NCBI GenBank assembly: GCA_038845975.1
Contig: JAWBQF010000009.1
Location: forward strand, 13,073-77,072
Direction of reading: 5' to 3'
DNA from: Candidatus Methanomethylicia archaeon
GTDB lineage: Archaea > Thermoproteota > Methanomethylicia > CALHIW01
DNA: 64,000 nucleotides
Shown here: positions 7,861-64,000 of the stretch, piece by piece
How positions within the stretch are numbered: the first letter of the stretch is position 1
How the letters are laid out: every line of letters begins with the position of its first letter
Made by a program: the position numbers and the translations under genes
Notes under the pieces: model-generated
Database searches by the model: none
What the model saw: only the letters and a program-made list of their open reading frames with translations
Told to the model about the DNA's origin: nothing

Positions 7861-7909
7861 TACAATACGTTATAGTAGAGACATTTATAAAGATTATGTA
7901 AGCTGTGAC

Positions 7910-8610
7910 GGCTTTGTTAACTTAAGCATGTTTATTACCTCCATTTTTGGTATTATGTTTTCTATGAATTCCTTAGCTTTTATTTTCCTTATCCATGCTT
8001 GTTTAGTATGTATGCTATTGACTTCATAAGCATTAATGCATGCTTATCATCACATTTATCCTTCATGTTATGTAGGTTATCGAATAGCTTAATTCTATCC
8101 TTAATATACTGTATTATTCTCTCCATTAGATTCCTAACCTCTAAACCATATAATGTTTTAATTAATATTTTACATGATTCTTATAATAATGAACCCCATC
8201 ACTTAATACAACTAAGAACCGTAAATAGCTCTAATTTTCTAATGTTAGTGATGTAAGTATGTTGCAACATCACAAACCCATACATATAGAATCCTTCTCA
8301 ATAATGGCTCGAATGCAACATAAATAACCTTACTCTTAAAACCTACTTACAATAGTATCATCAACCATAACAATCCTAACATCCCTCCTATCAAAATCAA
8401 TAGAAGATTAAGATAAACCATAATATGGATACATAACCTAAAACAATAAACTAAATATCTGAAGCCATCCTAGAAGAACGAAAACATATATGAGCAACAT
8501 AACAACTAGAGTAAATGGAGTTCCCTCCCTAACAAACCTAACAACTTTAACCATAGATTCACCGTAAACAAGGGAGAGAGCTCCCAAATAAATCTAAAGT
8601 TAACAAAGCC
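7910..8610 (-). mobile_element. IS6-family element, near full length, frameshifted transposase
   Basis: Perfect 14-bp TIR GGCTTTGTTAACTT/AAGTTAACAAAGCC; colinear with 21098-21832. Confidence 0.88.
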
Positions 8611-8812
8611 TATTGACTCAATGATAAAACATAAAAGAGGAAGAAATACACTATAAACATTAGATTACAGCTTTCAATTTATTGAAATCATTATAGTATA
8701 TTAAAATCAAGGCCACAAACTTAACAAATTGGAGTCAATATATCTAAAAATTAATTAAAACTCTTACATCATGAATAATCAAGTTTAATAGCCTAGTTTT
8801 AAATTACTATTT

Positions 8813-9469
8813 ATGTTAGTAGGAGTTGAAAGAGGAAGATGGCTTAAGGCTGATTTACATATTCATTCTATATACTCGGAAGATAGCTCATTAACAATTG
8901 AGCAAATTATAACTACTTGTAGAAGGCAGAGCTTTGATATAATATCAATAACAGATCATAATACATTTGAGGGGGCATTAAAAGCTAGTAGTTATGCAAA
9001 GAACTATAATGATATCACTATTCTAATAGGAATTGAAATAATGACTAACTTAGGTGAATTAATAGTTATTGGTGATGGCCCATTTGACGTATCGTATGAT
9101 GCGTATGAGTTAATAGACATAGCACATTCTATGGGTTATTTAGTTATAGCTCCTCATCCATATGATATCTGGAGAAAGGGTGTAAGAGATCATATTTATA
9201 ACTTAAACATAGATGCTATTGAGGTTTATAATACATCCTCGAGTGGTAAGGCAGTGGAAAAAGCATTAAATGTAGCAAAGGCACTAAGTAAACCAGCTAT
9301 TGGATCTAGCGATGCACATACAGTAAGGGAACTTAATACCTCGTATACAGTTATACATTCTATTGATAATGTTATAAATGTTAAAACAATTATTGATAGT
9401 ATTAAAACTGGAAAAGTTAAACCTTATTTTAGATCAGTAAGTAGAATTTTCAGTCGTTTATTTAGATGA
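8813..9469 (+). CDS. PHP-domain metal-dependent phosphoesterase
   Basis: DLHIHS, ITDHN, GIE, APHP, SSDAH. Confidence 0.92.
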   Translation: MLVGVERGRWLKADLHIHSIYSEDSSLTIEQIITTCRRQSFDIISITDHNTFEGALKASSYAKNYNDITILIGIEIMTNLGELIVIGDGPFDVSYDAYELIDIAHSMGYLVIAPHPYDIWRKGVRDHIYNLNIDAIEVYNTSSSGKAVEKALNVAKALSKPAIGSSDAHTVRELNTSYTVIHSIDNVINVKTIIDSIKTGKVKPYFRSVSRIFSRLFR

Positions 9470-9519
9470 TCTACTCACTTTTAATAAAATTTATTTAACT
9501 GATTATTTACGTTTTACTG

Positions 9520-9935
9520 AGCTTTGTTAACTTAAGCATGTTGATTACTCTATTTTGTTTTGTGTTTCTATGAATTCTTAGCTTTATCTTCTTATTAATC
9601 CATATCTTGTTTAATAAGTATACTATTGATTTTATAAGCATTAATACATATTCACCATCACACTTATCCTTCATAATTGTATACAATTACCCCTTCTCAT
9701 ATCAAACTTAATGGAAGCTTAAAGATTTAAACCACGACAATATGGATGCATAACTCCTACAACAATAAACAAAATATCTGAAACCATACTAGACAAACAT
9801 GAACAGAAATATATAAGCAACATAACAACTAGAGTAAATGGAGTTCCCTCCCTAACAAACCTAACAACTTTAACCATAGATTCACCATAAATAGGGAAGA
9901 GAAAACTCTCAAATAAAGCTAAAGTTAACAAAGCC
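9520..9935 (-). mobile_element. IS6-family internal-deletion derivative (416 bp)
   Basis: Both TIRs present; same deletion junction as 37163-37585; ORF 9719-9931 is transposase N-terminus. Confidence 0.88.
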
Positions 9936-10198
9936 TTTGCTATAGGGTAGAACTTTTATCATTATTATAATAGCATTGTTGTCAATTTTGTTTTTGCTAT
10001 ATGTTTAACGTTTATATCTTGTGTTTCATATGTACTCTGTGTTTATTTTATAGTAGATGTACATGTAAGTTGGTATTTCCTTTTTAGGTTTAGGAGTTTC
10101 GCAAACTTAAATAGAACTGTATTGGAGCTTGTTACTTTAATAGAAATTAAATGAAGAAAAAATCCGCTTCAGTTAGGATAGTAGTGAAGCTGTATAGT

Positions 10199-10906
10199 TC
10201 ATATTATTGTTTCTAGATACTTATTTAGATCTTCATACACAACGTTTCCAACAACTATGGTAGCATATTTAGACATCGTTAACGCCTTATTCCTTGAATT
10301 TATTCCTCCACCATAAAATAGTTTAGCATTAACTATGTTTTCACTTACTGCCTTTACAAATTCTGGATTTCCAAACACCCCACTATATTCAATATACACA
10401 ATTGGAAAAGATAGGTATTGTTCAGCATAAATTGCGTATGCTACAACATCATCTATGGTCAAGTCAGTATCAGCTTCTGTTACTTTAGCAACAGATGATT
10501 TAGGATTTAAAACTATATATGCTTCACCAACTACCTTATTCCATGGAATTTCAACATTTTTTCTTCGTTCATTCTTAATCCATTCGACTATTGCTTTAGA
10601 AATCCATATTATATTTTTAGTATTTAGTACTGATGGTATGAAAAGATAGTCTATGTTTGTAAATGTTACACATTCTGGATTTGATGGTTCAAGAACTATT
10701 GGAATAGATTTTCTATATTCTGTTATTTTGGAAATTAACTTTTCAACTTTTTCACGTGTTACATTTAATGTACCACCTATGATTATAGCATCTGTTCCGC
10801 TATTAACTACTGTTGAAATGATTTCTTCAGTGTTTAGTCTGTCAGGATCAAGCTTGGTGACATGCTTCCAATTCTTCCATTCTTTTAGAGACATAAATGT
10901 TATCAC
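10199..10906 (-). CDS. Geranylgeranylglyceryl phosphate synthase, group I (PcrB-like)
   Basis: WKHVTKLDPD, GTDAIIIGG, YIVLNP, YIEYSG, LFYGGGI, VVGN. Confidence 0.9.
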   Translation of the reverse strand: MITFMSLKEWKNWKHVTKLDPDRLNTEEIISTVVNSGTDAIIIGGTLNVTREKVEKLISKITEYRKSIPIVLEPSNPECVTFTNIDYLFIPSVLNTKNIIWISKAIVEWIKNERRKNVEIPWNKVVGEAYIVLNPKSSVAKVTEADTDLTIDDVVAYAIYAEQYLSFPIVYIEYSGVFGNPEFVKAVSENIVNAKLFYGGGINSRNKALTMSKYATIVVGNVVYEDLNKYLETII

Positions 10907-10945
10907 TGGAGCAAACTAATAAACATTATTAATATTTAAGTTAAG

Positions 10946-11419
10946 TTATGTTAATTGCTTTAAAACATCACTTATAAACATTAGTCTACCACAATAAAAA
11001 CAGCGTAATGTTAACTTAATTTTGTCTTCTACTAGGAATTTTGAAGTTAAAGATTCTCTTTCATAATTTGTTATGCAGGAAGGGTTTTGACACTTTAAAA
11101 CCCCTTCAAATTTCTCTGGTAATTCTACTTTTACTTTCTCAATTACATCATAATTTTTTACTATGTTTATAGTAGCATTTGGAGCTATTAATGCTATCAA
11201 ATTAAGTTCATCTTTAAGTAGATATCTATTCTCGATTTTTATAATGTCTTTCTTACCTAATTTTCTACTTTCAACATTCATCGCTATTAACACTACGTTT
11301 CCTTCCTTACCTGTTATTCTAACTATTTTTAGAATATCTAATGCTTTTCCGGAAGGAATATGGTCTATTACAGTTCCATTCATAATTTTTTTAACTTTTA
11401 ATTCACTGCTATTAGTCAT
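10946..11419 (-). CDS. pyrI: Aspartate carbamoyltransferase regulatory chain
   Basis: GTVIDHI, KDIIKIE, CQNPSCI...CFYC. Confidence 0.96.
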   Translation of the reverse strand: MTNSSELKVKKIMNGTVIDHIPSGKALDILKIVRITGKEGNVVLIAMNVESRKLGKKDIIKIENRYLLKDELNLIALIAPNATINIVKNYDVIEKVKVELPEKFEGVLKCQNPSCITNYERESLTSKFLVEDKIKLTLRCFYCGRLMFISDVLKQLT

Positions 11420-11540
11420 AAATACCTATAGTTAAAGTATAACTATTCTAAATTAATTTAATGCTACCACTAATGTCAGCTACAAAAATCCTATTAAAGG
11501 GCTTTGCTGTTTAGCAAGATCATAAATATCTGAAAGTACT

Positions 11541-12455
11541 TTATCTTCTATGCGCTAGACCTACTAAATCATTTATTTTATCAATATTATTTTCCTCCAA
11601 ATACTTTTTAATACCAGTACATATTTTCCTAAATATACCTAAACCTTCAGTAGCTATTGCTGAACCTATTTGAATAGCTTTAGCTCCAGCTAGAATATAT
11701 TCTACGGCATCCTCCCATGAATATATTCCTCCACAACCAATTATTGGAATACTCAGCACTTCGTAAGCTTTAAATACGCATGCTAATGAAAGCGGTTTAA
11801 GAGCCTTGCCAGAAAGCCCACCATAAACTCCTTGAAGAACCGGTTTCTTACTGAAAATGTCTATTTTCATAGCTTTAACAGTATTTGTTAACGTTACTGC
11901 AGAAGCCCCTCCGTCTTCTGCCGCTAATGTAAGCTCATCAATTAATGTCATTAATGGAGGGAGCTTAGCTATAACAGGTACTTTTGATTTCTTGCATACT
12001 TCTCTTGTTACTTCTTCAACCATCCAGGGTATTTTTCCTATTTCTAACCCTACACCCATTTTGGTTGGGCATGATAAATTAAGCTCTAAAGCATCTACAT
12101 AGTCAGTAAGCTTGCTTGCTAAATATTTAAACTCATCAATATCTGATGCAAAAATACTTCCAAATAACCTGACCTTCTTACTTTTTACTATTTCAAACTC
12201 AGCTATCATTTCATTAAGTCCTGGATTAGGCAATCCCATTGAGTTTATATATCCATATCCTAGGTCGATAAGTACAGGTGTCTTGTATCCCTCGTTTGGC
12301 TTAATGCTAATTGACTTTGAAACAACAGCTCCGGCTCCAGATTTATATGCTCTAATTAGCAATGAAGCTGTAGTTCCAAGTATTCCTGAAGCTAGTATTG
12401 TAGGGTTTCTAAGAAATAGGGTACCTAATGAAATACTTACTGACATATTAATCAC
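11541..12455 (-). CDS. pyrD: Dihydroorotate dehydrogenase 1B catalytic subunit
   Basis: LASG, NSMGLPNPG, ELNLSCP, GGLSG, IIGCGGI. Confidence 0.95.
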   Translation of the reverse strand: MINMSVSISLGTLFLRNPTILASGILGTTASLLIRAYKSGAGAVVSKSISIKPNEGYKTPVLIDLGYGYINSMGLPNPGLNEMIAEFEIVKSKKVRLFGSIFASDIDEFKYLASKLTDYVDALELNLSCPTKMGVGLEIGKIPWMVEEVTREVCKKSKVPVIAKLPPLMTLIDELTLAAEDGGASAVTLTNTVKAMKIDIFSKKPVLQGVYGGLSGKALKPLSLACVFKAYEVLSIPIIGCGGIYSWEDAVEYILAGAKAIQIGSAIATEGLGIFRKICTGIKKYLEENNIDKINDLVGLAHRR

Positions 12456-13263
12456 TTAATTTAACTTTTACACCGGAGGGGGAACGACGATAGCGGCCAA
12501 GCTCACTTAGTTTCACTAATATTTTAAGTGGAAATACAGGACCGTCTTTACATACTCGTAACCCAAGAGGATCTAGACAGCAGGAACCACATAATCCAAT
12601 TCCGCACTTAATAAGTCTCTCTAGAGATGCTTGCAGGTTTAAATTGTGGTCATATGCCAATTTTATAAGTTTAGTTATCATGACTTCCGGTCCACATGTA
12701 TATATTAAGTCTACCTTTGAGAGAGACAGATATTTTTCTACCAGTGTAGTAACGTCACCGTGAAAACCTTCAGAGCCGTCATCTGTAGATACAAATACTT
12801 CTCCTAACAGTTTAAACTGGTCATAAAAAAGCAGTTCATCTTTATTCCGCGCACCTAAAAACGATATTACTTTTATATTCATGTTTGAAACTTTCTTAGC
12901 TAGAAGGAGGAGAGGAGCTATTCCATAACCACCACCAATAATCCATATCTTGTTTGTACCCCTAGGAATTTTAAATCCATTACCATACGGACCTCTAACA
13001 TATAAATAGTCATGAATTTTCAGTTCATGAATTTGCCTCGTTGTTTCGCCAACAGCCGCTATCGTTAAACCCATGATTGAACCATTAAAGTAAGATATAG
13101 AAATTGGCACCTCTTCAGCACCCGGAATCCAAACCATCATAAACTGACCGGGGATAACTTTAATTCTATCTTTTAGTTTTAGATAAAATGTCTTAATCCT
13201 ATCTGAGTGAGTGAGGATATTAATAATTTCAATAGGTTTTTGAGAAACTATCATTTTTAACAC
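12448..13263 (-). CDS. pyrK: Dihydroorotate dehydrogenase electron transfer subunit
   Basis: PGQF, RGPYGNGF, GGGYGIAP, CGIGLCGSC..VCKDGPVF. Confidence 0.95.
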   Translation of the reverse strand: MLKMIVSQKPIEIINILTHSDRIKTFYLKLKDRIKVIPGQFMMVWIPGAEEVPISISYFNGSIMGLTIAAVGETTRQIHELKIHDYLYVRGPYGNGFKIPRGTNKIWIIGGGYGIAPLLLLAKKVSNMNIKVISFLGARNKDELLFYDQFKLLGEVFVSTDDGSEGFHGDVTTLVEKYLSLSKVDLIYTCGPEVMITKLIKLAYDHNLNLQASLERLIKCGIGLCGSCCLDPLGLRVCKDGPVFPLKILVKLSELGRYRRSPSGVKVKLSD

Positions 13264-14575
13264 CTATCTTTACGAATTTACCACACCCTTTTTTTACTAA
13301 AATTTCATCTTCATCATAAATAAGTAAGCCGCCTAAAATTGTTTTAAAAACTTTAAATTTAACCTTCATATTTTTGAATGGAGAATATCGTGCTTTAGAT
13401 TTAAATTTCTCTGGATCTATTGTATATTCACCTTTATGATTAACAATAACTAAATCTGCATCAAATCCAGGTTCTATTTTACCCTTATTTTTAAGATTAA
13501 GGAGTTTAGCCGGATTTTCAGACATAGCGGAGATAACATGTGAAAAAATAAGTTCATCATTTAAGCATCTCGATAAAAGCACTGGTAGAGCAACTTCAAA
13601 GTTTGGAAAGCCTGAGGGGGCTTCACAGTAGTCCTTTGATTTCTCTTCCAGAGCATGCGGTGAATGATCTGTTACTATACAATCTACAAGACCTTTATTA
13701 AGAAGCTTAACTAGCATTTTTCTATCATATTCAGTACGTAATGGGGGGTTTACCTTAGCTATGTTTCCCCAAGTAGATGTAAAATTATTATTAAGAATAA
13801 GGTGATGAGGTGTTACCTCAACTGAAATGTTTAAATGATTATATTTCACTTTACTAATTAAGAAGCATGAATCGCTTGACGATATATGACATATATGCGC
13901 TTTAAATTTATAGATGCTTTTTAAGTTAAATACATAATTTATGGCTTCAATTTCAGCCTTTGTGGGTCTGATTAAATGATGATTCAACACATTTAACTCA
14001 CAGGTAGTAGTGTTAATATTAATAAAATCTCTTAATTCAGCGTGAAAGTGAACACGTATATTGTAATTATTACAAGCATTATAGAAATTATAGTTGCAGT
14101 GGTCCGTATTTAACTCACCATATTCGCTTAAATATACTTTAAACCCTGCTATACCCATATTAACCAATTCTATAAATTCCTCAATATTTTTGGGAGGAGC
14201 TGAATATAAGCCAACATTAACTATAGCATTTAAATGTATCTTTTCTATTTTTTCACGAAGTCGTATTGGCGAATTTGTAACAGGTTCAGTATTAGGCATA
14301 TCAAATACTGTAGTAAAACCACCAGAAGCTGCTGCACATGTTCCTGTGTAGAAATCTTCTTTATAAGATAGCTTAAAATCTCTTAAATGAGAATGAATAT
14401 CTATGAGGCCAGGAAGAATAAGTAATCCATTGACGTTCAGTCTTAAATCAGATCGAGGAGCTAAAGGCTCCTTGCAGAGTTTAACTATTTTACCATTATC
14501 GATGACTATAGCGCACTCGACAAATTCCCCTGCATGCCAGACTTTACCACCAGATATTACTAAATCAGCAATCAA
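13229..14575 (-). CDS. pyrC: Dihydroorotase
   Basis: DIHSHLR, DMPNT, KVNPPLR, TDHSPH. Confidence 0.94.
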   Translation of the reverse strand: MIADLVISGGKVWHAGEFVECAIVIDNGKIVKLCKEPLAPRSDLRLNVNGLLILPGLIDIHSHLRDFKLSYKEDFYTGTCAAASGGFTTVFDMPNTEPVTNSPIRLREKIEKIHLNAIVNVGLYSAPPKNIEEFIELVNMGIAGFKVYLSEYGELNTDHCNYNFYNACNNYNIRVHFHAELRDFININTTTCELNVLNHHLIRPTKAEIEAINYVFNLKSIYKFKAHICHISSSDSCFLISKVKYNHLNISVEVTPHHLILNNNFTSTWGNIAKVNPPLRTEYDRKMLVKLLNKGLVDCIVTDHSPHALEEKSKDYCEAPSGFPNFEVALPVLLSRCLNDELIFSHVISAMSENPAKLLNLKNKGKIEPGFDADLVIVNHKGEYTIDPEKFKSKARYSPFKNMKVKFKVFKTILGGLLIYDEDEILVKKGCGKFVKIGVKNDSFSKTY

Positions 14576-14586
14576 GAAAATTCACG

Positions 14587-15558
14587 CTATTTAAAGCTAT
14601 AAAATAACTGTTTTAAATCTTCTTTATTAGCTAAAATCATTGATAGTAGAGCCATTCTTATGCATAAACCATAATATGTTTGAATGAAGTATTTAGCTTG
14701 AGGGTGTGAATTAACATCTAATGATATTTCATCAACTCTTGGCAATGGATGTAAAATAATACAATTAGGCTTGGCTTTAGATATTAGGGAGGAGGTTACC
14801 TTATAGCTTCCCTTAACTCTTAAATATTCAGCGGGATCTGGGAAACGTTCTTTCTGAATTCTAACAACATATATTACATCAAGATTAGAAATGATTTTTT
14901 CAATATCTTCATAGTATTTAAACTCAACTCCTTTCTTTTTCAGATCCTCTTCGATTTCATCTCTTAACCTTAAACTTGGAGGAGATACGAAGCTTAAATT
15001 AACATTAAAAAGAGATAAAGCATACACAAGAGAATGAACAGTTCTTCCATATTTAAGATCGCCAATAATGCCAATCTCTAAACCATCCACTTTACCAAGT
15101 TCTCTTTTTATGGTGTATATATCTAATAAAGCCTGGGTTGGATGCTCTTGAGCCCCGCTACCAGCATTAATAACAGGAACATTGGATAGCTCAGCAGCTA
15201 ACTTAGCAGCACCTTCAGCTGGATGACGTAAAACTATGCAGTCACAATAATTCTCAACTGTCTTAATAGTATCCGAAAGCGTTTCACCTTTAGCAACAGA
15301 CGATGCTTCAGCAGACGTAAATCCTATAACGTTACCTCCAAGTCTATACATTGCAGCTTCAAAACTTAAGCGAGTTCTAGTTGATGGTTCAAAGAATAGT
15401 GTAGCCATTATTTTACCTCTAAGAATATTAGGACTACCGCCTTTAGCATACTTCTCCATTATATAAGCAACATTAAATATTTCCTCAATTAACTCCCTAC
15501 TAAAATCCAGAATTGAAACTACATCTTTACCGTGGAGGCTAAACAGATTACTCACCAT
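14587..15558 (-). CDS. pyrB: Aspartate carbamoyltransferase catalytic chain
   Basis: FFEPSTRTRLSF, HPTQALLD, GDLKYGRTVHSL, HPLPRVDEI. Confidence 0.97.
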   Translation of the reverse strand: MVSNLFSLHGKDVVSILDFSRELIEEIFNVAYIMEKYAKGGSPNILRGKIMATLFFEPSTRTRLSFEAAMYRLGGNVIGFTSAEASSVAKGETLSDTIKTVENYCDCIVLRHPAEGAAKLAAELSNVPVINAGSGAQEHPTQALLDIYTIKRELGKVDGLEIGIIGDLKYGRTVHSLVYALSLFNVNLSFVSPPSLRLRDEIEEDLKKKGVEFKYYEDIEKIISNLDVIYVVRIQKERFPDPAEYLRVKGSYKVTSSLISKAKPNCIILHPLPRVDEISLDVNSHPQAKYFIQTYYGLCIRMALLSMILANKEDLKQLFYSFK

Positions 15559-15929
15559 AAAATACCTTTAACTACAAATATTTGAATTTTTTAATTACAA
15601 TATGGCTTAACATTATGCTACTAATCAACACTAGATAATATGAATAAGTAAACGATAAATCTTAAATAGATATGACAACTTAAGCCTACTTTCCAGGGTT
15701 GTAGATGGTATAAATATAAATAGGTTTAGTATTCAGTTTATTTCTTATCGTATAGTTGTTATTGTTGAGAATACTCTAATTCTCTCTGAATAATAGTATT
15801 CTACTCTACTATACTTCTCTTACTGAAAGATACTTCTAAATGTAGTAGTTTAAGTTTTACGTAGTGCATTATCAATGAAGAATATTGATTCTATCATAAT
15901 GTTTTAATTACTTCATAAGAATTGTTTAA

Positions 15930-16038
15930 GAACTAATTGCAAACTCCAAATTTAAACATGTTAACAATATTTCACAACACTATTCTCATGTAGAATTAAA
16001 CCAGTTAAACCTTAATAGTAGAGTTTTGCAATGACTTC
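15930..16038. mobile_element. 109-bp MITE, copy 1, 3-bp TSD TAA
   Basis: Identical to 17943-18051; imperfect TIR GAACTAATTGCAAACTC / GAGTTTTGCAATGACTTC; taa on both flanks. Confidence 0.88.
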
Positions 16039-16074
16039 TAAATATTATGATATTCCTTATATGCTTCCATAGCA

Positions 16075-16159
16075 AACTTATCTGAAAACTTATATTGTTA
16101 AAACTTAAATTAGATTAATAAATTAACTACCAACTAATCATAGAGTTTTCAGACAGGCT
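16075..16159. mobile_element. 85-bp MITE-like element
   Basis: TIR aacttatctgaaaact / agttttcagacaggct (13/16 match). Confidence 0.55.
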
Positions 16160-16272
16160 AAGCTATTATTTCATTCCTATAATATCTAGTATAATCCAAT
16201 AATTCCTATCATTAGTCTTAACTCCTCATTTATAACTCTCTAGAACTCCAATGATTTATATTTATCCTCTCC

Positions 16273-16473
16273 TAAGCTTATTCATTCCTACAATAACCAT
16301 ATTATAAACCTAAATAATACTCTAGAAACCCCTATCAAATATCTATATGAATACTATATCAAATTACATCTATAAAACATTATTCCACTCAAACATTCCA
16401 AGATTTTAATAAACTCCTAATACTAACATGAAATAAACAATAAACTTATATAACTTCTTAAGTCGCTAAGTTC
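16273..16473. repeat. Decayed mobile-element end, related to 5500-5665
   Basis: Colinear shared blocks; possible partner end tgacaacttaag at ~15673. Confidence 0.6.
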
Positions 16474-16537
16474 TCTTAAATTACCAGAAAATTTAAACAC
16501 TAGTTCCTAAGTATACCTACTACTGGAGTGAAAATAA

Positions 16538-17911
16538 ATGGTTAGTACGCAATGGAGTTTACTATATTTACTACGTGAGAATCCTGATAAACTCAAATGG
16601 AGTCAAAAAGTAAGAGGGTTGGATGAAAAGGTAATTGATAGTGCATTAGAACTTGATTTGAAATGGAGGGAGATTTTGAAAGAAGTCAATAAACTAAAAC
16701 ATGAGAAAAATGTCATTTCTAAAATGCTCTTAAAGACAACCATAGAAGATAAAAATACTTTAATTAATAAAGCTCGTGAAATAACTCAGAAGATAGAAAA
16801 GCTTGAAGCATACGCTGAAGATTTAAAGAAACGTAGAGATCAGATACTACTAGGACTACCAAATGTATTACATGAATCAGTACCTATCGGTACTGATGAA
16901 AGCGATAATATACCTGTAAGGTTTTATGGAAAACCAAAAGTTTGGAGGAAATTTATTGACCAATTTTTAAATCAAGTAAGAGGACATAATGTGGAGTATG
17001 AAATAGTGGATAGGCTTCCTATTGGTCATGCTGAATACGTGGAAAAAACAGGCCTTGCAGATATGGAAAGAGCTGCAAAAGTTTCAGGCTCTAGATTTTA
17101 TTACTTAATAGATGATCTTGTATGGCTTGACTTTGCATTAATTAACTATGCTCTCGATTACCTTAAAGCACAAGGTTTTAAAATTCTTGAGCCTCCATTT
17201 ATGATTAGAAGAGAAGCTTACGAAGGAGTAACTTCACTTGAAGATTTTGCAAATGTCATATATAAAATTGAGGGGGAAAATCTATATTTAATAGCAACAT
17301 CTGAGCATGCAATTGCTGCCATGCACATGAATGAGGTGCTTGAAAAAAGCGAGCTTCCACTATTGTATGCTGGAGTAAGTCCCTGTTTTAGAAAGGAGGC
17401 TGGAGCCCATGGCAAAGATACTAAGGGAATATTTAGAGTTCATCAGTTTAATAAAGTTGAGCAATTCGTATTTTGTTTACCTGAGGATTCTTGGAAATGG
17501 CACGAGAAACTCATAGAGAATGCCGAAAAACTATGGCAAGGCCTTGAGATTCCTTATAGAATTGTTAACATATGCACAGGAGACATAGGAATTGTAGCTG
17601 CAAAAAAATATGACTTAGAAGCATGGATGCCAGCTCAAGGGAAATATAGGGAGGTAGTATCATGTAGTAATTGCACAGATTGGCAGTCATATAGGCTTAA
17701 TATAAGATATGCTGAAAAGAGAGGGTTACCATCAGAGGGCTATGTTCATACATTAAACTCAACAGCAATAGCTACATCTAGAGCTATAACAGCTATAATA
17801 GAAAACTATCAACAGGAGGATGGAAGCGTAATTATTCCTAAGGTTTTAAGAAAATATTTAGAGAATATTGAGAATGCGCCTAAAGAAAAAATAGTACCAA
17901 TTCGAAAGTAA
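16538..17911 (+). CDS. serS: Serine--tRNA ligase
   Basis: N-terminal coiled coil, LIATSEH, FRKEAG, RVHQFNKVEQF, EVVSCSNCTDWQS, HTLNST. Confidence 0.97.
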   Translation: MVSTQWSLLYLLRENPDKLKWSQKVRGLDEKVIDSALELDLKWREILKEVNKLKHEKNVISKMLLKTTIEDKNTLINKAREITQKIEKLEAYAEDLKKRRDQILLGLPNVLHESVPIGTDESDNIPVRFYGKPKVWRKFIDQFLNQVRGHNVEYEIVDRLPIGHAEYVEKTGLADMERAAKVSGSRFYYLIDDLVWLDFALINYALDYLKAQGFKILEPPFMIRREAYEGVTSLEDFANVIYKIEGENLYLIATSEHAIAAMHMNEVLEKSELPLLYAGVSPCFRKEAGAHGKDTKGIFRVHQFNKVEQFVFCLPEDSWKWHEKLIENAEKLWQGLEIPYRIVNICTGDIGIVAAKKYDLEAWMPAQGKYREVVSCSNCTDWQSYRLNIRYAEKRGLPSEGYVHTLNSTAIATSRAITAIIENYQQEDGSVIIPKVLRKYLENIENAPKEKIVPIRK

Positions 17912-17942
17912 AATATGTAGAAACTTGAACAACATTAAATAT

Positions 17943-18051
17943 GAACTAATTGCAAACTCCAAATTTAAACATGTTAACAATATTTCACAACACTATTCTC
18001 ATGTAGAATTAAACCAGTTAAACCTTAATAGTAGAGTTTTGCAATGACTTC
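17943..18051. mobile_element. 109-bp MITE, copy 2, 3-bp TSD TAT
   Basis: Identical to 15930-16038; tat on both flanks. Confidence 0.88.
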
Positions 18052-18127
18052 TATATTAACTTAAGCTCATCACTTAGATCAACATTAATTCTTATTAAAT
18101 TTAGAGTACTAGTACTGATCACTAACA

Positions 18128-18502
18128 CTATAAATGAAAGGGCTTACCTTGATATAATATCTTTTCAGGAAGTTTGCTTGCATGAGATTTAAGGAAAAGA
18201 ATATCGGCATCTTTATTTCTAAGATCATCAGGAAGCATATGTGGTATTTCATCTATTATTGGATACCATCTATTACAATTGCAACAAATAAGAGCTCCTT
18301 CAATAATCTCCTTAGAGAGACAGATGTTACACTTTAGGTCATTAATATCCCTAATAAACTTACTTTCAAATCCACAGTATTCTTCACATGTCCTGGATAC
18401 GTTTCTAGAAATTTCAACTTCAGACACTTCAAATACATATAATGAAAGTGGAAATGTCTTACAAATTGGACAAGCAAGTAAATCCATTAGTCGATACTTC
18501 AT
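18128..18502 (-). CDS. Trm112-family methyltransferase activator
   Basis: LMDLLACPICK...EGALIC..CNRWYPIIDEIPHML. Confidence 0.9.
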   Translation of the reverse strand: MKYRLMDLLACPICKTFPLSLYVFEVSEVEISRNVSRTCEEYCGFESKFIRDINDLKCNICLSKEIIEGALICCNCNRWYPIIDEIPHMLPDDLRNKDADILFLKSHASKLPEKILYQGKPFHL

Positions 18503-18553
18503 ACTATCAAGTTCTTTTACTGAACAAATATAAAAAGTTGCCTATCAATAAAG

Positions 18554-18725
18554 GGCTTTGTGAGCACAAGCATGCTCATTATCTCTAACTATACCTTCAA
18601 TCAAACCTCAATTCAAAGTTTGAATTAAATGTCAGTTATAAAATATTAAATTTCTCTTGATTACTATTTTCTCATGAATTTAAATCATCAACTACGTATA
18701 TTTTATATCTAAAGTTCGCAAAACC
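18554..18725 (-). mobile_element. 172-bp IS6-derived MITE
   Basis: Ends ggctttgtgagcacaagcatg and atctaaagttcgcaaaacc match the two IS6 termini. Confidence 0.7.
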
Positions 18726-18759
18726 TAAAAATTAGTTTTGTAGGTGATAATATCCTATA

Positions 18760-19260
18760 CCTAACTAAAGTCCTTAACCTCCTAATATCTTTAGATGAAA
18801 CATAGCATTCAATCAAAAATCACCGCATAGTAACTAATACCATAGACATCAACTTTATTCTAATTCTAGCTGAGGCAATAGCCATTTAATGGATTAATAA
18901 ACAGCCTTAGCATCTTTATCATCGGAAGCCTTAAATAGATTAACCAATAGATTATCCATGAACCCAGTAATAGCACAGACATTCTTTAAAAGCTTAGAAG
19001 TAAAAGTGTTCACCTCTTCAACATCATTAGTAAAGCCAAACTCGTCAACTAAAAACTATCTCATTGATAATAATAGTTCTACATTTATTCCTGTTTAATC
19101 TGCATCAATATACCTTACCTTGCGCATCTCTCCATTTTAGCTAGCCTTAAGCTGTAAACAATCATTTGAGTGTGGACCTAATTCTTTAGTAGCTTAACAT
19201 GACTAGTCAAGTAATGGTCGCAAAGATTAATTAATAACCAGGTCTATCAATTCAAGCAGT
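18760..19260 (-). pseudogene. Degraded DDE transposase remnant (IS5-like)
   Basis: Minus-strand fragments ASDDKDAKAVY, PLNGYCL, KVDVYGI resemble the D.DA..GY...GYK.H..VD..G region; boundaries approximate. Confidence 0.4.
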
Positions 19261-19401
19261 AATGGAAAGAATCTTTCATAAGGTCAAATCATAGAAACAA
19301 CCAGAAACCAGCAATAAGAATAAACTACAAAGCGTAAAAGTTTAATATCCATAACTTTAATAGAAGTAATGTTGTTAGTTTCTTCATAGCTACATTATTT
19401 T

Positions 19402-21042: not shown

Positions 21043-21097
21043 ACAATTCTGTAGTCATTACAATAGATGCATATTTAAAACTTTCTAAAATTTAAAC

Positions 21098-21832
21098 GGC
21101 TTTGTTAACTTAAGCATGTTTATCACCTCTATTTTGGTATTATGTTTTCTATGAATTCCTTAGCTTTTATTTTCCTTATCCATGTTTGTTTAGTATGTAT
21201 ATTATTGATTTTATAAGCATTAATACATGTTCACCATCACATCTATCCTTCATGCATGGTATATAATTATCGAATAGCTTAGTTCTATCCTTAACATACT
21301 GTATGATCCTCTCCATTAGATTCCTAACCTCTAAACTATACAATTCATGTTTTAATTTTAATATTCTACTGCTTTATAATAATGAGCTCCATCACTTAAT
21401 ACAACTATATTAGAACCATAGATAGCCCTAACCTTTTTAAGGAATGTTAGAGATGTAAGCATGTTGCAACATCGCAAACCAATACATACAAAATTTCCTT
21501 AATAACGGCTCAAATACAACATAAACAACCTTACTCTTAGAACCTACACTAATAATAGTATCATCAACCATAACAATCCTAACATCCCTCCTATCAAACT
21601 CAAATAGGAAGCTTAAAGATCTAAACCACGATAATATAGATACATAACTCCTAACAACAATAAAGCTTAAAATATCTGAAGCCATCCTAGATGAACATGA
21701 ACGAAAATATATATAAGCAATAAACAACTAGAGTAAATGGAGTTCTCTCCCTAACAAACTTAACAACTTTAACCATAGATTCACCATAAATAAGGGAGAG
21801 AACTCCCAAATAAATCTAAAGTTAACAAAGCC
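21098..21832 (-). mobile_element. IS6-family element (735 bp), best-preserved copy, frameshifted transposase
   Basis: Perfect 14-bp TIR; minus strand gives VDDT, VLSDGAHYY and RNLMERIIQYVKDRTKLFD (IS6/IS240-type DDE) split over frames. Confidence 0.9.
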
Positions 21833-21860
21833 GTGTAGCCATTCGTTAAGTTTAAAAGAG

Positions 21861-22685
21861 TTGTTAAATATAATGAAGGGTGTGAACATTGAGCGCCTTT
21901 CAACTGGAGTAAAGGGACTTGATGAACTTATTGAGGGTGGTATTCCAAGAGGGTTTTTTGTTGTTGTTACTGGAGAACCTGGATGCGGTAAAACAATACT
22001 CTGTATTCACTTTATTAATCAGGGTATTCTTGAAAATGATAAAAACATATATATAACAACAGAGGAAAGTAGAGAAAGCATAATCAGTCAGGCTGCTCAA
22101 TTTAACATGGATTTTAACAAGGCAATTACTGAGAAGAAGCTTATAATTATAGATGCACTTATGGGGGGAGAAGATCTGTGGACTTTAAAATCACTAGATT
22201 TAGAGATGCTTATTAACAAAATAATTGAGGCAAAAAAATATCTTGGATATGGCCGTGCTCGAGTAGTAATAGACTCTATTTCAGCTTATTGGCTTGATAA
22301 GCCTGCTATGGCTAGGCGATATTCGTACTTTATTAAAAAGGTCCTTTCAAAATGGGATTTTACAGTTATGGCGACTGCACAATACGCTATAACTACTGGA
22401 GAGGCACATGGATTTGGGGTTGAACATGTAGGTGATATTATTATCAGATTTAAGAGGATAATTCGAGGAGGAAAGCTATGTAGATTTTTAATAATTGAAA
22501 AAGCTAGACAAACAAATCATTGTTTATATGCTCATGAGATAAACATTGCTACGGGGCAAGGATTAATAATAGGTAAGAAGCTTGAAATAAGAAAAGAAGA
22601 CTATACTTTACCAAGATACATATATGATAAGATAATATCAATTAAGAAAAAGGAAGTTAAAGAACTTAGTCATAGTAGTCTGTAG
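21861..22685 (+). CDS. Single-domain KaiC-like RecA-superfamily ATPase
   Basis: STGVKGLD, GEPGCGKT, TTEES, VVIDS, EKAR.T.H; real start may be GTG 21882. Confidence 0.92.
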   Translation: MLNIMKGVNIERLSTGVKGLDELIEGGIPRGFFVVVTGEPGCGKTILCIHFINQGILENDKNIYITTEESRESIISQAAQFNMDFNKAITEKKLIIIDALMGGEDLWTLKSLDLEMLINKIIEAKKYLGYGRARVVIDSISAYWLDKPAMARRYSYFIKKVLSKWDFTVMATAQYAITTGEAHGFGVEHVGDIIIRFKRIIRGGKLCRFLIIEKARQTNHCLYAHEINIATGQGLIIGKKLEIRKEDYTLPRYIYDKIISIKKKEVKELSHSSL

Positions 22686-23175
22686 GTATAGGATTCAACA
22701 AACATTTAAAGTTAAAAGTTAATATTTTCTTTTGCATTTCTTCTAATAACCTTTTATTACTGAGCATTTACTATATGCTCTGTTGTTTTTATTTTCTTAC
22801 TTATTTGTAATTAAATTAACAGCATTAAGAATCTCATAGAGACAAAGTATCATAGATCCAGTATTATAGTCTTATATTCATAAGAGATGTGTTAGGAAGG
22901 AGTGTAACTCTCGAGATCCTACTAACACTTCTAGCATTTAACATTAATACTCTGGTGGGATGAGAGAAAGTAGAAACTATGATTTATTAAAGACATCTTA
23001 TTATTCAAACTCCCAAACAAGAAAACTAAAACATACAAAAGATACAATAATAAACTAATCACTAACAAATACTTGAGTAAGAGTTAAGAATAATACTAAT
23101 AAATCTAAGCTGCTATATGTTCAAGGTCTTTAAAGTATGTTTAGGAGAAGGTTGCCTTAGGCGTGATGGTAAGTT

Positions 23176-24003: not shown

Positions 24004-24061
24004 TTTTGAATTATATCAATTAAATTTATATCGATAATAAAGGTTTAATTATGGTGATAGT

Positions 24062-24472: not shown

Positions 24473-24526
24473 GAAAGTTACATTATTAGACATTAATACT
24501 TTACATTTGAATTAAGTACTATTGTC

Positions 24527-25920: not shown

Positions 25921-25978
25921 AGTTTTATGAACTTTAGATATGAAGCATATGTAGGTGATGGCTTAAGTTCACAAGGCA
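25921..25978 (+). mobile_element. 58-bp IS6-derived mini-MITE
   Basis: agttttatgaactt ... cttaagttcacaaggca; similar to 5678-5737. Confidence 0.6.
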
Positions 25979-26024
25979 GATATGAATATAGTAAAATTTA
26001 TTTTGGAAACTAAATGTTAACTGT

Positions 26025-35221: not shown

Positions 35222-36196
35222 AGCTTTGTGGCTTAATTAATTTTTGGTTTATTGAATCTTTAGTTTATGGATTGGAGGGTTGTTGATGAGTGTTTGATTA
35301 GGCGTGGTGAGCTTCTTCTTAGCCTGGAATTTCTGAAGGCTATGATTCTGAGCTTATGGATTTGAATCGTGGTAAGGTAGGTCATCCCTTCAAGCTTACT
35401 GTTAGGTATGTTGAATTCCTTATGGTTGTACGTTATCTCTTCTCAATGCCTTACAGGCAGCTTGAAGGCTTCACTAGGGCTTTAAATAGGCTTATCCCTA
35501 AGCTTCCATCAGTTGACTACTCTTGGGTTAGGAGACGTATATTAATGCTTAACCCATCTTTATACGATTCGTTGAGGGTTTCCAACGAGCCAGTCACTAT
35601 AGCCGTAGACTCGAGCGGTGTTAGCGTCCATAAGTCTGGTGGATGGGTTACACGTATGTATGGGAGGAGGAAGCGCTATATCAAGATCCACTTCGCAGTA
35701 GACGTTAAGACTAGGAGGTTTTAGCTATGGAGGTAACAACTGATGACGTTCACGACTCAGAAGCGGCATTAATTAAGGATGCCTCTAAGCTTAGGAGGGT
35801 TTCTGAAGCTGTTATGGATGGAGCTTACGATAACTCTGAAGCCTACAATCTCCTTAGAGGGATGGGCGTAAAACCCGTCATAAAGCCTAGACGTAATGCT
35901 AGAGATGATAGAGGTCCTCCGGAAAGACGTAGGATGGTTAGGCTTATCGGAAGGATGGGTGATGAAGGATGGGCGGGGATGATGGGCTACGGTAGACGTT
36001 GGGTTGAAACAACATTCTCAACATTCAAACGCCAGTATGGAGAATACTGCATGGCGAAAAACATGGAAAGCATAAAGAAAGAACTAGAAGCCAAAGCATA
36101 CATATACAACATGCTAATAAACCTATAAGGCAAAATCAAAAAGAAACATAAAATCAAAGAAGAGACCTAAACAACAAAGAATTAAGCCACAAAGCT
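35222..36196 (+). mobile_element. IS5-family element (IS903/ISH1-like)
   Basis: Perfect 17-bp TIR agctttgtggcttaatt / aattaagccacaaagct; visibly more GC-rich than host. Confidence 0.9.
35267..36128 (+). pseudogene. IS5-family transposase, frameshifted at ~35338 and ~35720
   Basis: MDWRVVDECLIRRGEL..., PYRQLEGF, AVDSSG, KIHFAVD, MDGAYD, RRWVETTFSTFK in three pieces. Confidence 0.88.
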
Positions 36197-36957: not shown

Positions 36958-37162
36958 CTAGTAATAGCATCGTTTTATTAATGAATTCTCGTAAAACTAT
37001 TCAAGCTTTCTTCTTTATGTTTTCTATTAGGTTTCGTGAACTTAGCGATAGTGGTTGGAACTCATTAGACCTTTATATTCTCTTAAAACAGAAAACTGGT
37101 AGTTTAGAATTGGCAATAACATACACTAAATAGAATTCTATATGGTTTGTTACAGGCTAATG

Positions 37163-37585
37163 GGCTTTGTTAACTTTAGCTTTATTTTAAAGCTCTCTCC
37201 CTTATTTATGGTGTTAGTATGTCTAGAATTATTAGGTTTGTTAGGAAGAGAACTTCGTTTACTTTAGTTGTTTATGGTGCTATGTATTTCCGTTCATGTT
37301 CGTATAGAATTGCTTCAGATATTCTAAGCTTAATTATTGTTGTAGGAATTATGCATCCATATTGTCGTGGTTTAAATCTTTAAGCTTCCATTAAGTTTGA
37401 TATGAGAAGGAGTAATTGTATACCATGTATGAGGATAAGTGTGATGATGAATATGTATTAATGCTTATGAAGTCAACAGTATACATGCTAAACAAGATAT
37501 GAATCAATAAGAAGATAAAGCTAAGAATTCATAGAAAATACAAAACCAAAATAGAGGCAATAAACATGCTTAAGTTCACAAAGCC
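37163..37585 (+). mobile_element. IS6-family internal-deletion derivative (423 bp) with 8-bp TSD
   Basis: Both TIRs; flanks ggctaatg / agctaatg (7/8); same junction as 9520-9935. Confidence 0.9.
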
Positions 37586-50118: not shown

Positions 50119-50128
50119 TCATAGCACC

Positions 50129-53796: not shown

Positions 53797-53799
53797 AAT

Positions 53800-61034: not shown

Positions 61035-61037
61035 TTT

Positions 61038-61508: not shown

Positions 61509-61511
61509 AGT

Positions 61512-62015: not shown

Positions 62016-62016
62016 A

Positions 62017-62412
62017 TCATATCCGCCACAAATCTATGTTTTTAGCTAACTTAAGAGCGAATAAGATCGATGGAACTAGAGATAATATAATAATAAATGT
62101 AAGTATTACGGAATTTATGAAAAATTTATATGATGATGGTAAATAGATGAAGAATAGTATAATAATAGGCTCCATTGTCAAGAAAACTATTAAGTATGCA
62201 AAGTATTGCATAATAAACCATCCTCTTGCTCTTCCTTGAGGTAAGTTTCCACACTCATATCTTAACTCTTTATGCGGCTCTGACTTAGATATAGAAACAA
62301 GTCTTGAAATTATGTATCCGAAAATTCCGATACCAATTCCAATACCAATTATTGATATGAAAGCTATGTAAGCATTTATATAGGGATTTTGTAGATTTAA
62401 ATTAAAGATCAT
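62017..62412 (-). CDS. nuoA: Complex I-like subunit A
   Basis: RYECGN, QYFAYLIVFL..E; three TM helices. Confidence 0.92.
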   Translation of the reverse strand: MIFNLNLQNPYINAYIAFISIIGIGIGIGIFGYIISRLVSISKSEPHKELRYECGNLPQGRARGWFIMQYFAYLIVFLTMEPIIILFFIYLPSSYKFFINSVILTFIIILSLVPSILFALKLAKNIDLWRI

Positions 62413-62468
62413 ACTAATTTCAATTAATCGAAAAAAATGTCCTATTTATATTTTTCCACTTTAGAAAT

Positions 62469-63058
62469 GATTTTGTTAACTTAAGCATATTAATTGTTCT
62501 ATTTGGTTTTGTGTTTTCTATAAATTCTTAGCTTTATCCTATTGTAATCCATGTTCTTTAGATATACTATTGATTTCATAATCATTAACATATGCTCACC
62601 ATCACACTTATCCTCATACATGGTACATAGTTATCGAATAGCTTAGTTCTATTCTAATGTATGATTCTCTCCATCAATTTAACTTATAAACTATATCATG
62701 TTTAAACTCATATTTGCATGATGCTTATAGTATTGAGTATGTATTTGATGTTTGAATCATAGATAGCCTTTATCTTCTAAGGAATGTTAAAGTGTATGTG
62801 TATTGCAACATCAAACAATATGTAGAGAACCCTCTAATAATTATTCAAATACAACATACATGACCACCCATAGAACCTACTAATAATAGTATTATTAACC
62901 ATCTAATAATCAAACTCAATAGAAGCTTAAGATAAACCATAAAACAAATACAACCCTACAAAATAAACAAAATTCTAAAGACATACCAGATAACAAACAT
63001 ACAACAACATAAACAAAACAAATGAAATACCATAAATAAAACTAAAGCTAGCAAAACC
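62469..63058 (-). mobile_element. Heavily decayed IS6-family copy
   Basis: Degenerate TIRs gattttgttaactt / aagctagcaaaacc; colinear with 21098-21832 with many small deletions. Confidence 0.8.
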
Positions 63059-63253
63059 TATTGATGCTAGGTAAATTATGTAAGAAGTTGTGTAATCTTA
63101 ATTTGAGAGAAACAACTAAGTCTAACAATCAACAAGTAACAAATACAATTCTAAACTCATTGCAGATAAAGAAAAATCTATAGCAGAGTCTAAACTTACA
63201 TAGCCATATGCTTTGAGTTAAAGTTTAAATTTTAGAACGAAAACTTAAAAACC

Positions 63254-63511
63254 ATGTCCAAGGAGTACAAGTACATAATAGATATTAATAAGGTCAGTAC
63301 TAAAGTACGTTTCCCAAAAGAAGTCCTGAAGGAACTAAAAAAGTCCATTAAAGGTAATTTTCTTAAAAACATGAAAAGTGAAACTGTTATTTGCCCCCTG
63401 ATAGGAAAATCTATTTCCTTCTTATATTGTTACGGAAAATGTAGTAATTTCGTACGGAGAGTAAGGGGAAAACTATATTGTAAAGGTCTTCCAGTTCAGA
63501 TTGATATTTAA
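63254..63511 (+). CDS. Small basic hypothetical protein with four-Cys putative Zn site
   Basis: CP...CYGKC...C; TATA-like tttaaatt upstream. Confidence 0.65.
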   Translation: MSKEYKYIIDINKVSTKVRFPKEVLKELKKSIKGNFLKNMKSETVICPLIGKSISFLYCYGKCSNFVRRVRGKLYCKGLPVQIDI

Positions 63512-63732
63512 TTTAGTCTTCCTCTTTATAAATGAGGGACAGTCTAACATTAATCATGGGTTTCTTACTCTAGGTAGCCTAAATTGAGGAATTAAGTACC
63601 TAATAGTCTTCACTATCATCATTAAGTATATGAAACTCCATATAAAACATAAATAACAAGCTTAAATACGTTGAAAACACCTTGTTATAAAGCCTCATTC
63701 TTAGGTTAAATTAATAATTAAATCACTTAATA

Positions 63733-63791
63733 TGGCTCAGCCATTTTTTTCTTCATGCTTTAATCAGATCCCGAGTTCAGAATCATTGCCA
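63733..63791 (-). ncRNA. C/D box guide sRNA candidate with its own promoter
   Basis: tggc-a-ATGATTC-tgaactcgggat-CTGA-7nt-ATGAAGA-9nt-CTGA-gcca; gataaag-TTTAAATA about 21 nt upstream. Confidence 0.7.
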
Positions 63792-63837
63792 GTAAAAAAG
63801 TATAGTTATATTATTTAAACTTTATCAAAAGAGAAAC

Positions 63838-64000
63838 GGCTTTGTTAACTTAAGCATGTTTTATCACATCTATTTTTGGTATTGTATCTTCTATGAATTC
63901 TTAGCTTTTATTTTCCTTATCCATGTTTGTTTAGTATGTATGCTATTGACTTCATAAGCATTAATACATGTTCACTGTCACATCTATCCTTCATGCATGG
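63838..64000 (-). mobile_element. IS6-family element, truncated by window edge
   Basis: GGCTTTGTTAACTTAAGCATG start; close match to 21098 onward. Confidence 0.88.

Follow-up and report, generated by a model that had tools for sequence, protein, structure and literature searches.

Insertion sequences and promoters in the window

The window, by which we mean the whole stretch of 64,000 nucleotides analyzed here, spans positions 13073-77072 of contig C9 (JAWBQF010000009.1) in the assembly of a Candidatus Methanomethylicia archaeon (GCA_038845975.1; 2.77 Mb, 76 contigs, 33.7% G+C). It contains decayed insertion sequences (IS) of an IS6-type family, and this study concerns the distance between the ends of these elements and the outward-facing promoters of adjacent host genes. 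Both element ends carry the inverted repeat (IR) GGCTTTGTTAACTT, and the pattern GGCTTTGTKAACTT, with at most two mismatches, was matched 14 times in the window, against 1.2 matches expected. An original prediction, made from the letters of the window, had proposed that exactly 18 nt separate seven of these ends from the first T (T1) of a TATA box. Six of the seven were assigned to the same end, the transposase 3' end (here type A; type B is the left inverted repeat, IRL, at the transposase 5' end). All seven ends were recovered at the predicted positions by the IR pattern and by reading of the flanks.

Flanks were scored with a 16-column matrix of the transcription factor B recognition element (BRE) and the TATA box, trained by expectation-maximization (EM) solely on the -48 to -12 regions of 1951 long open reading frames (ORFs) of this genome. 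An offset of +19 means that T1 is the 19th nucleotide outward from the element tip, i.e., that the spacer is 18 nt long, and an end is called anchored when it scores at least 6 bits at +19, unless stated otherwise. The proposed spacing was borne out at six of the seven ends (7910, 21098, 21832, 25978, 62469, and 63838), with 9.0-12.7 bits at +19, but not at 18554, where the best match is at +18 and the 1-nt ambiguity that had been allowed for in runs of T is seen.

The copy at 7910..8610 (minus strand, 701 bp; positions 20982-21682 of contig C9) has only broken ORFs, with its type A end at 7910 and its type B end at 8610. T1 of the host TATA box TTTATAAA (7884..7891, minus strand; 9.0 bits) lies 19 nt from the tip 7910, and a thioredoxin-reductase-like Pyr_redox_2 gene (6949-7860) starts 31 nt past T1. 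The full-length decayed copy at 21098..21832 (minus strand, 735 bp) is without a target duplication and has a host promoter at +19 on both sides. On its left, the box TTTAAATA (21072..21079, minus strand; 9.9 bits) precedes the gene for class I lysyl-tRNA synthetase (LysRS; 19405-21042), which starts 37 nt past T1, and on its right the box TTTAAAAG (21851..21858, plus strand; 12.7 bits) is the promoter of a KaiC-type ATPase gene (21873-22682). A miniature of 58 bp consisting of two IRs alone (25921..25978) is followed by the box TTTATTTT (25997..26004, plus strand; 10.7 bits) and by a cyclophilin-like gene (26025-26402) starting 28 nt past T1. The diverged copy at 62469..63058 (about 590 bp), the ends of which have 2 and 3 mismatches to the IR pattern, faces the box TATAAATA (62443..62450, minus strand; 11.5 bits) of nuoA (62020-62412; start 38 nt past T1). 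At 63838..64000, the type A end of a copy running past the window edge is flanked by a second box of the sequence TTTAAATA (63812..63819, minus strand; 12.0 bits), located 28 nt upstream of a candidate C/D-box small RNA (sRNA; 63733-63791, minus strand). The seventh end, 18554, belongs to a short remnant with diverged ends (18554..18725, 172 bp), and its box TTTTATAT (18528-18535; 6.6 bits at +18) lies inside a T-run upstream of a Trm112p gene (18131-18502). The gene names given earlier agree with Pfam, the cyclophilin-like match being below the cut-off (E 5.8e-5), and the C/D sRNA has solely weak Rfam matches (E 0.4-0.9, below the gathering score).

Among the ends that had been listed as not fitting, 9520, 37585, 5678, and 5737 have no box according to the matrix, but 8610 (8.9 bits at +20) and 37163 (5.4 bits at +19) carry some signal. 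The internally deleted copy at 9520..9935 (416 bp) has no box at exactly +19 on either side, its end 9935 scoring best at +18 (6.1 bits). The deleted copy at 37163..37585 (423 bp) has a duplication with one mismatch, and its anchoring, at 5.4 bits on one side, is not clear. Miniatures of 58-60 bp, essentially two IS6-type IRs, are found in the window at 5678-5737, 25358-25416, and 25921-25978.

Genome-wide spacing between element ends and promoters

A stricter 18-nt end pattern yielded 344 ends in the genome, every one with a unique flank. Scores of at least 6 bits occur at +19 in 121 of them, as opposed to 19 at +18, 15 at +20, and 0-9 at each other offset from 9 to 60. At a threshold of at least 10 bits, 72 ends remain at +19 and 0-5 at other offsets. 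The same result was obtained independently of the matrix with the plain hexamer TTTAWA, which starts at +19 in 59 of the 344 ends and at each other offset from 1 to 60 in 0-6. The background rate of scores of at least 6 bits is 0.35% at random positions and 0.52% at random non-ORF positions, corresponding to 1.8 expected ends (p = 3e-182). The flank logo of the 344 ends is flat at positions 1-12 and then reads G-W-A-A-R-R-T-T-T-A-W-A at positions 13-24.

Among the outcomes that, according to the original prediction, would speak against it were a broad distribution of distances with a lower bound only and a similar rate of boxes in A/T-rich DNA. What was found is a spike at +19, with 121 of 344 ends as compared to 0.52% at random non-ORF positions and 0.5-0.6% in A/T-rich random DNA. 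The preference for the transposase 3' end, on the other hand, is confined to the window, where it applies to six of the seven ends; genome-wide, 58 of 171 type A ends and 61 of 167 type B ends are anchored, and no bias for element orientation is seen in the pairs with duplications either (14 vs. 15). Proximity to contig edges had no effect (12 of 38 edge ends and 109 of 306 internal ends anchored).

The boxes are host promoters

Among the host's genes, the hexamer TTTAWA is most frequent at 29/28 and 38/37 nt ahead of the start codon. An ORF of at least 60 aa starts 15-120 nt past T1 at 90 of the 121 anchored ends, compared with 41 of 199 clearly non-anchored ends, and the ORF starts behind anchored ends peak at +28..31 (30 ends) and +36..39 (23 ends). 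These peaks match the two spacing classes of the host (-29/-28 and -38/-37), which identifies the boxes as outward-facing host promoters. With the hexamer fixed, the free flank positions correlate with the host upstream profile at r = 0.93 (G at -6, A at -4/-3, T at +6, A at +7). An excess of G is also seen in the IS flanks 28-30 nt past T1. Unique flanks, a host-like profile, and canonical gene spacing thus uphold the proposal that the TATA boxes are the host's own and stand at normal promoter distance. G at -6 has a frequency of 0.58 in the IS-associated promoters, 0.37 in the hexamer-anchored host set, and 0.47 in the EM matrix. We do not rely on a stronger-than-average BRE at IS-associated promoters, since the hexamer-anchored host set is diluted by non-promoters.

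The box could, in principle, be carried by the element itself, as part of a longer variable end or through an outward promoter of the element, or be an artefact of A/T-rich DNA. The 5' IR does hold a TATA-like box, yet it faces inward. The 18-nt spacers and the sequence beyond are unique in all 344 flanks, positions 1-8 are duplicated across the element as target duplications, host genes follow at canonical spacing, and A/T-rich random DNA produces boxes at the low rate given above. We regard this explanation as refuted.

Anatomy and age of the insertions

The genome contains 88 two-ended elements, of which 60 are at least 600 bp long; there are also deletion derivatives and eleven miniatures of 58-60 bp, four of the latter with a promoter at +19. 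The 8-bp flanks are identical in 29 of the 88 pairs and differ by one mismatch in nine more. Of these 38 elements with a duplication (at most one mismatch), 29 have a promoter on one side, none on both sides, and nine on neither, and their far flank has no A/T excess at positions 19-26. The duplicated 8-bp target lies at -18..-11 from T1, 4 nt upstream of the BRE, in agreement with the cut geometry that had been predicted. The 50 pairs that lack a duplication comprise 22 with anchoring on one side, seven on both, and 21 on none, so that anchoring on both sides is limited to this class. Such a pattern is as expected from recombination or replicative rearrangement between anchored copies, and it would constitute indirect evidence for replicative cointegrate transposition. 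Anchoring does not change with copy age, being found in 14 of the 20 youngest, 13 of the 20 middle, and 15 of the 20 oldest copies.

In 13 pairs, the facing tips of two IS6-type elements are separated by 6-11 bp, most often by 8 bp (six pairs; examples of such pairs are C4:50905/50914, C59:8015/8024, and C25:12488/12497), the next gaps being 32-39 bp. Several IS flanks, in this genome and in metagenome loci, begin 8 bp from a palindromic miniature of about 50 bp with GGCAACTTA arms. Both arrangements look like insertion beside a resident end and may be reminiscent of IS26, which targets resident copies.

The window is represented in public sequencing runs (19 rows, nearly all labelled hot springs metagenome, and among them one RNA run with 0.05 of the words). 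The insertion at 21098 is common to a population of about 96% identity, the contig of which enters the copy by 14 nt from the flank. A contig of run X9 joins the copies at 7910 and 9520 (window 7938 to 9548; 1609 bp skipped); either the two copies recombined to give a deletion variant, or the assembly was joined across the repeat. None of the 15 joints listed from four DNA runs for window positions 5000-24900 skips exactly one element, contigs breaking at repeats, and transcription start sites are not readable from the run contigs. The pre-insertion site could not be read from the sole genome of the same genus (G001, 62% complete), in which the gene left of 7910 has an orthologue at 87% identity and the intergenic DNA is too diverged for alignment.

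Identity of the element and its own promoter

Full copies are 655-735 bp long, and the family makes up about 2.7% of the genome. When compared with one reference copy by blastn, long matches have about 70-95% identity. The GG tips and the internal cTGTt motif of the IR, the size, the single transposase gene (one ORF of 228 aa in intact relatives), and the 8-bp duplications all fit the IS6 family. An intact metagenome relative of 228 aa, P0002, is 63% identical to a fragment of 145 aa from this genome. P0002 matches the NCBIfam model NF033587 (transpos_IS6) over residues 8-199 of 228 and model positions 2-197 of 202 (E 5.7e-14; 52 bits, curated cut-off 125), and the fragment matches the IS6 model at E 2.2e-6. 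In Pfam, no family reached E 1 with P0002, and a genome scan with PF13610 gave two places and none of the approximately 170 copies, which are too decayed and diverged for this model. The transposase is probably a divergent IS6 member or belongs to a sister group, the match being significant yet below threshold.

A first contig scan of genomes with P0002 gave no relative, and the IR pattern, in the 62 genomes of the class, gave solely single chance-level matches outside this genome (the taxonomic family of this genome consists of two genomes). Relatives were found in metagenomes (loci L006-L067). Of 30 that were frame-checked, two are intact (L006 and L022), and most are interrupted early, near YIYF codons. 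This suggests that decay, or a recurrent frameshift-prone run, may be common in the clade beyond this genome.

The type B end contains the element's own inward-facing BRE/TATA, with T1 at inward +19 in 105 of 167 ends, while the type A end has a box at this position in just two of 171. In the intact relatives, the inward +19 box is the best match (7.1 bits), with the ATG 37-39 nt past T1, i.e., in the second host spacing class, and 55-57 nt from the tip. The two IRs are alike over positions 1-17 only. Since type A ends are without a box, the transposase needs no TATA to bind its own ends. The box at inward +19 of the 5' end, in turn, implies that the transposase and TFB/TBP (transcription factor B and TATA-binding protein) are already neighbors, at the same spacing, on the element.

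Both host factors are encoded in the genome. Its sole TBP gene lies within the window (36397-36957, plus strand; 186 aa, two PF00352 repeats), between an IS5-family copy and IS6 remnants at 37030 and 37163-37585, and two TFB paralogues are located on contigs C33 and C1.

Other families and genomes

The IS5-family copy (35222..36196, plus strand; IR AGCTTTGTGGCTTAATT; NF033579, E 1e-20 and 4e-27) represents a family that served as a control within the same genome. None of its 82 ends, those of miniatures included, is anchored, and no offset exceeds two ends. The IS5-family element has two ORF pieces split by a stop, and many miniatures of about 130 bp share its IR.

The chance rate of 0.52% is taken from this genome; elsewhere, the appropriate comparison is with the counts at the remaining offsets of the respective set. 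The metagenome relatives of P0002 comprise 79 loci with 64 independent ends, after removal of 13 flanks that are also present in this genome. Of these ends, 25 reach at least 6 bits at exactly +19, compared with 0-3 at any other offset. A second family of about 700 bp in this genome (IR GATACTGTTACTTTTAG; for example C2:126580-127276, L195, and C68:2946-3653, L197) has 49 ends, nine with a box at +19 and eight at +20. Its coding capacity is decayed and its identity uncertain, fragments matching IS6 at E 0.064 and rve_3 at E 0.0018, and no similarity to P0002 is detected by tblastn. IS6 elements with the IR GGGACTGTCAACTTAAG, from three genomes of family f18, have a box at +18 to +20 from the true tip in 12 of 55 ends (of about 76; counted as 19-21 from GGACTG, the true tip being one base further out). 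Records with this type of IR are titled Candidatus Caldarchaeum or Nitrososphaerota.

Single archaeal copies that combine a perfect duplication with a strong box at +19 are L213 (12.8 bits; record titled Thaumarchaeota), L223 (12.1 bits; Thermoplasmata), and L247 (8.5 bits; uncultured archaeon). In another Thermoplasmata record, L221, the box scores 9.4 bits at +18. A further record, titled Nitrososphaerota (L206), has 10.7 bits at +19, its duplication status not being part of the evidence. As IR detection in this set was automatic and rough, no rate was derived. With the main family included, the spacing thus recurs in five data sets. Seven IS6 copies in records titled as Aquificae-type bacteria had no match at offsets 16-22 in any of 14 ends.

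Some side observations concern the wider family. IS6-model matches in open frames of 375-470 aa occur in family f10 genomes and others (L085-L108), and many of these genomes have more than one. No convincing IRs were found around them among 16-mers starting with GG within 900 bp, and they may be domesticated copies or an IS6 clade with long transposases. IS6 transposases that share 31-39% identity with the Caldarchaeum-type enzyme are present at eight bacterial loci titled Thermocrinis, Aquifex, Aquificaceae, or Calescibacterium (L232, L233, L236, L237, L252, L261, L266, and L267). Most of their IRs end in GATGTCAACTTTT, with none recognizable in L261. These similarities hint at a possible exchange between archaea and bacteria in hot springs.

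A promoter-bound complex as candidate landmark

According to our analysis, the elements choose their targets by the position of host promoters and do so with single-base precision, a conclusion in which we have high confidence. The 18-nt spacing reflects target choice and not selection alone, because the distances form a spike instead of showing a lower bound, the IS5 family lacks the pattern, and anchoring does not change with copy age. This IS6-type clade of about 700-735 bp picks its target by the host core promoter, inserting at the 8-bp target in such a way that one tip, in either element orientation, comes to lie 18 nt from an outward BRE/TATA and both promoter and gene stay intact. The landmark may be the promoter occupied by TFB and TBP, recognized via protein contact or via the DNA deformed by these factors, with the strand-transfer site placed about one helical turn upstream of the contact between TFB and the BRE. 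Such a safe harbor could have let the family reach its share of a compact genome. Recombination or replicative rearrangement between anchored copies would later have given rise to the copies that lack a duplication, among them those flanked by two promoters.

Several lines of indirect evidence point to TFB/TBP. Flank positions 1-12 are nearly empty of sequence information, as for a ruler set by a bound complex. The 3' end needs no TATA, and at the 5' end the transposase site already borders on one for TFB/TBP. The same motif, at an equal distance, is used by elements that differ in their IRs and have diverged transposases. No such signal is seen at the 14 ends of copies from bacterial hosts. 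On this basis we consider the occupied promoter to have an even or marginally better chance of being the landmark, and we lean slightly toward the whole explanation, i.e., anchoring together with the TFB/TBP step.

A number of observations weigh against this interpretation. About a quarter of the clean insertions, 9 of 38, have no recognizable promoter. All 60 full-length copies are pseudogenes, with a longest ORF of 120 aa and at most 93% identity to the consensus, and since all copies are decayed, selection may have contributed to some extent. In G383, a genome of 2.84 Mb from another family of the phylum, a 667-bp IS6 element with young copies and clean duplications has 118 ends, and of the 82 examined just eight score at least 6 bits at +19 or +20 (three and five, respectively). 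This is above the chance expectation of 0.85, but the signal is weak. The main signal in this genome is a local S-WWWWWW-S target with A/T at positions 11-12 and 21-22. The Caldarchaeum-type transposase (187 aa) is without a C-terminal tail and its similarity to P0002 is below tblastn detection, and inspection of the alignment by eye revealed no extra domain common to the anchored transposases. That only outward promoters are found would not discriminate either, as insertions between promoter and gene would be purged by selection. Finally, direct reading of BRE/TATA by the transposase would leave an identical sequence pattern.

Selection might account for the spacing on its own if insertion were random or A/T-biased and the survivors were those copies that spared a promoter. 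The age of all copies in this genome is in line with such a scenario; non-anchored insertions may have been purged, and the young population of G383 is mostly unanchored. Selection alone, however, predicts a lower bound on the distance and not a spike of one nucleotide. The IS5 family, which is under the same selection, shows 0 of 82 ends and no peak, there is no trend with copy age, and even in G383 the eight ends at +19/+20 exceed expectation. We consider this scenario very improbable.

Direct DNA recognition is the strongest competitor of guidance by TFB/TBP. The transposase, perhaps through a protomer or surface that is not used for the IRs, would read the sequence or shape of BRE/TATA with no need for a host factor. 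The target feature is indeed a defined 14-nt motif, and a similar sequence, ARR-TTTATTT, is located equally far from the tip in the 5' end of the element (the 105 type B ends mentioned above), so that a subterminal contact might be reused in a kind of end mimicry. The A/T preference in G383, with its 10-bp period, would likewise fit a shape-reading transposase. Against this stands the 3' end, which is bound by the same protein without a motif at +19. The flank motif moreover tracks the host profile, including G at -6, a position occupied by T in the 5' IR. Elements with differing IRs, and with transposases that tblastn cannot pair, share the spacing, a convergence more simply reached via TFB/TBP, and the bacterial copies, few as their ends are, were negative. 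We regard direct recognition as the less likely reading, though one of sizeable probability.

The landmark could also be some other feature linked to promoters, such as the edge of a phased array of chromatin proteins or histones, RNA polymerase or TFE in the pre-initiation complex, or DNA opened by transcription. Our data fix the insertion relative to BRE/TATA only, and any factor rigidly set by TFB/TBP would give the same logo. The single-nucleotide precision, with its drop from 121 ends at +19 to 19 and 15 at the adjacent offsets, favors the sequence-specific factors themselves, and the cut is made upstream of the BRE, on the side remote from the polymerase. We deem a landmark of this kind improbable.

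Returning to TFB/TBP as the preferred landmark, we tentatively extend the idea, at a confidence just short of even. Archaeal IS6 transposases may be physically positioned by the TFB/TBP-promoter complex, as an archaeal and possibly ancient counterpart of the targeting of Ty3 by TFIIIB. This positioning might be common to IS6 lineages in several archaeal phyla and have been lost on the move into bacteria. The interaction may first have evolved at the element's own promoter.

Relation to known systems

Archaeal TFB is a homologue of Brf1/TFIIB. In yeast, the Ty3 intasome contacts TBP within TFIIIB (TBP and Brf1) and integrates with extreme precision, as described in a cryo-electron microscopy study that solved these contacts (PMC8632968). 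As in the Ty3 system portrayed there, a DDE-type enzyme inserts at a fixed, nucleotide-precise position beside a promoter bound by TBP and a TFIIB-family factor, and the upstream insertion is harmless in a gene-dense genome. Unlike Ty3, a eukaryotic long terminal repeat (LTR) retroelement that inserts at the transcription start of genes transcribed by RNA polymerase III (Pol III), the present element is an archaeal DNA IS that inserts upstream of the BRE, whether the promoter belongs to a protein gene or to an sRNA gene. We estimate its position at about -48..-41 from the start site, on the assumption that T1 is near -30. While the contacts of Ty3 have been solved, those proposed here with TFB/TBP are suggested by a sequence pattern.

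Tn7 employs its own targeting protein, TnsD, for a single chromosomal site, attTn7, and Tf1 of Schizosaccharomyces pombe inserts at Pol II promoters within a broader window set by Sap1. Both resemble the present case in the use of a DNA-bound protein as landmark, a set distance, and a harmless site, although the protein landmark is here a putative one. They differ from it in that hundreds of different promoters are used here and that the element encodes no targeting protein besides the transposase. The Dictyostelium retrotransposons DGLT-A and TRE5-A also integrate upstream in a position-specific manner through contacts with transcription initiation factors, but they are eukaryotic retroelements that depend on TFIIIC/TFIIIB of the Pol III system, and their windows are a few nucleotides wide where a single position is used here. 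Their insertion upstream of tRNA genes is treated as convergent safe-site targeting in compact, gene-dense genomes (PMC6101501).

Short IRs with GG tips and a cTGTt motif are described for the IS6 family in the available text of a review (PMC7986276). As far as the portions of this review and of a second paper on IS26 go (PMC7986276; PMC6807381), our element resembles IS26 and its family in size class, a single DDE transposase, GG tips, the TGT motif, and 8-bp duplications. Many copies are without duplications, as is expected of cointegrate or intramolecular replicative transposition. It differs from the members described there (PMC7986276) in its promoter-anchored target choice and in a far diverged transposase (52 bits vs. 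the cut-off of 125). Full-text literature searches, with subscription journals, supplements, and ISfinder entries outside their scope, returned no earlier account of promoter-anchored insertion, be it by IS6 or by an archaeal IS of any kind. Promoter targeting is absent from the accessible text of the IS6 review, in which "target specificity" and "target preference" occur in the reference list only (PMC7986276). The available portion of a 2026 survey of archaeal IS does not contain "promoter," "TATA," or "target site" (PMC13343696), and that of a Pyrococcus furiosus re-annotation does not mention promoter targeting (PMC6640164).

Implications

A small transposase of about 230 aa with a built-in ruler suggests a possible tool with which DNA could be placed immediately upstream of promoters in archaea. 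As TBP/TFB/promoter complexes of archaea are readily reconstituted, the question of guidance is directly testable. If guidance by TFB/TBP is true, this would be the first case known to us in which a prokaryotic IS finds its landing site by the basal transcription machinery. In the domain that shares TBP and TFIIB-family factors with eukaryotes, it would directly parallel Ty3/TFIIIB. The element ends are nucleotide-precise markers of real promoters in uncultured archaea, and anchoring alone explains how hundreds of copies could build up in gene-dense archaeal genomes without killing genes.

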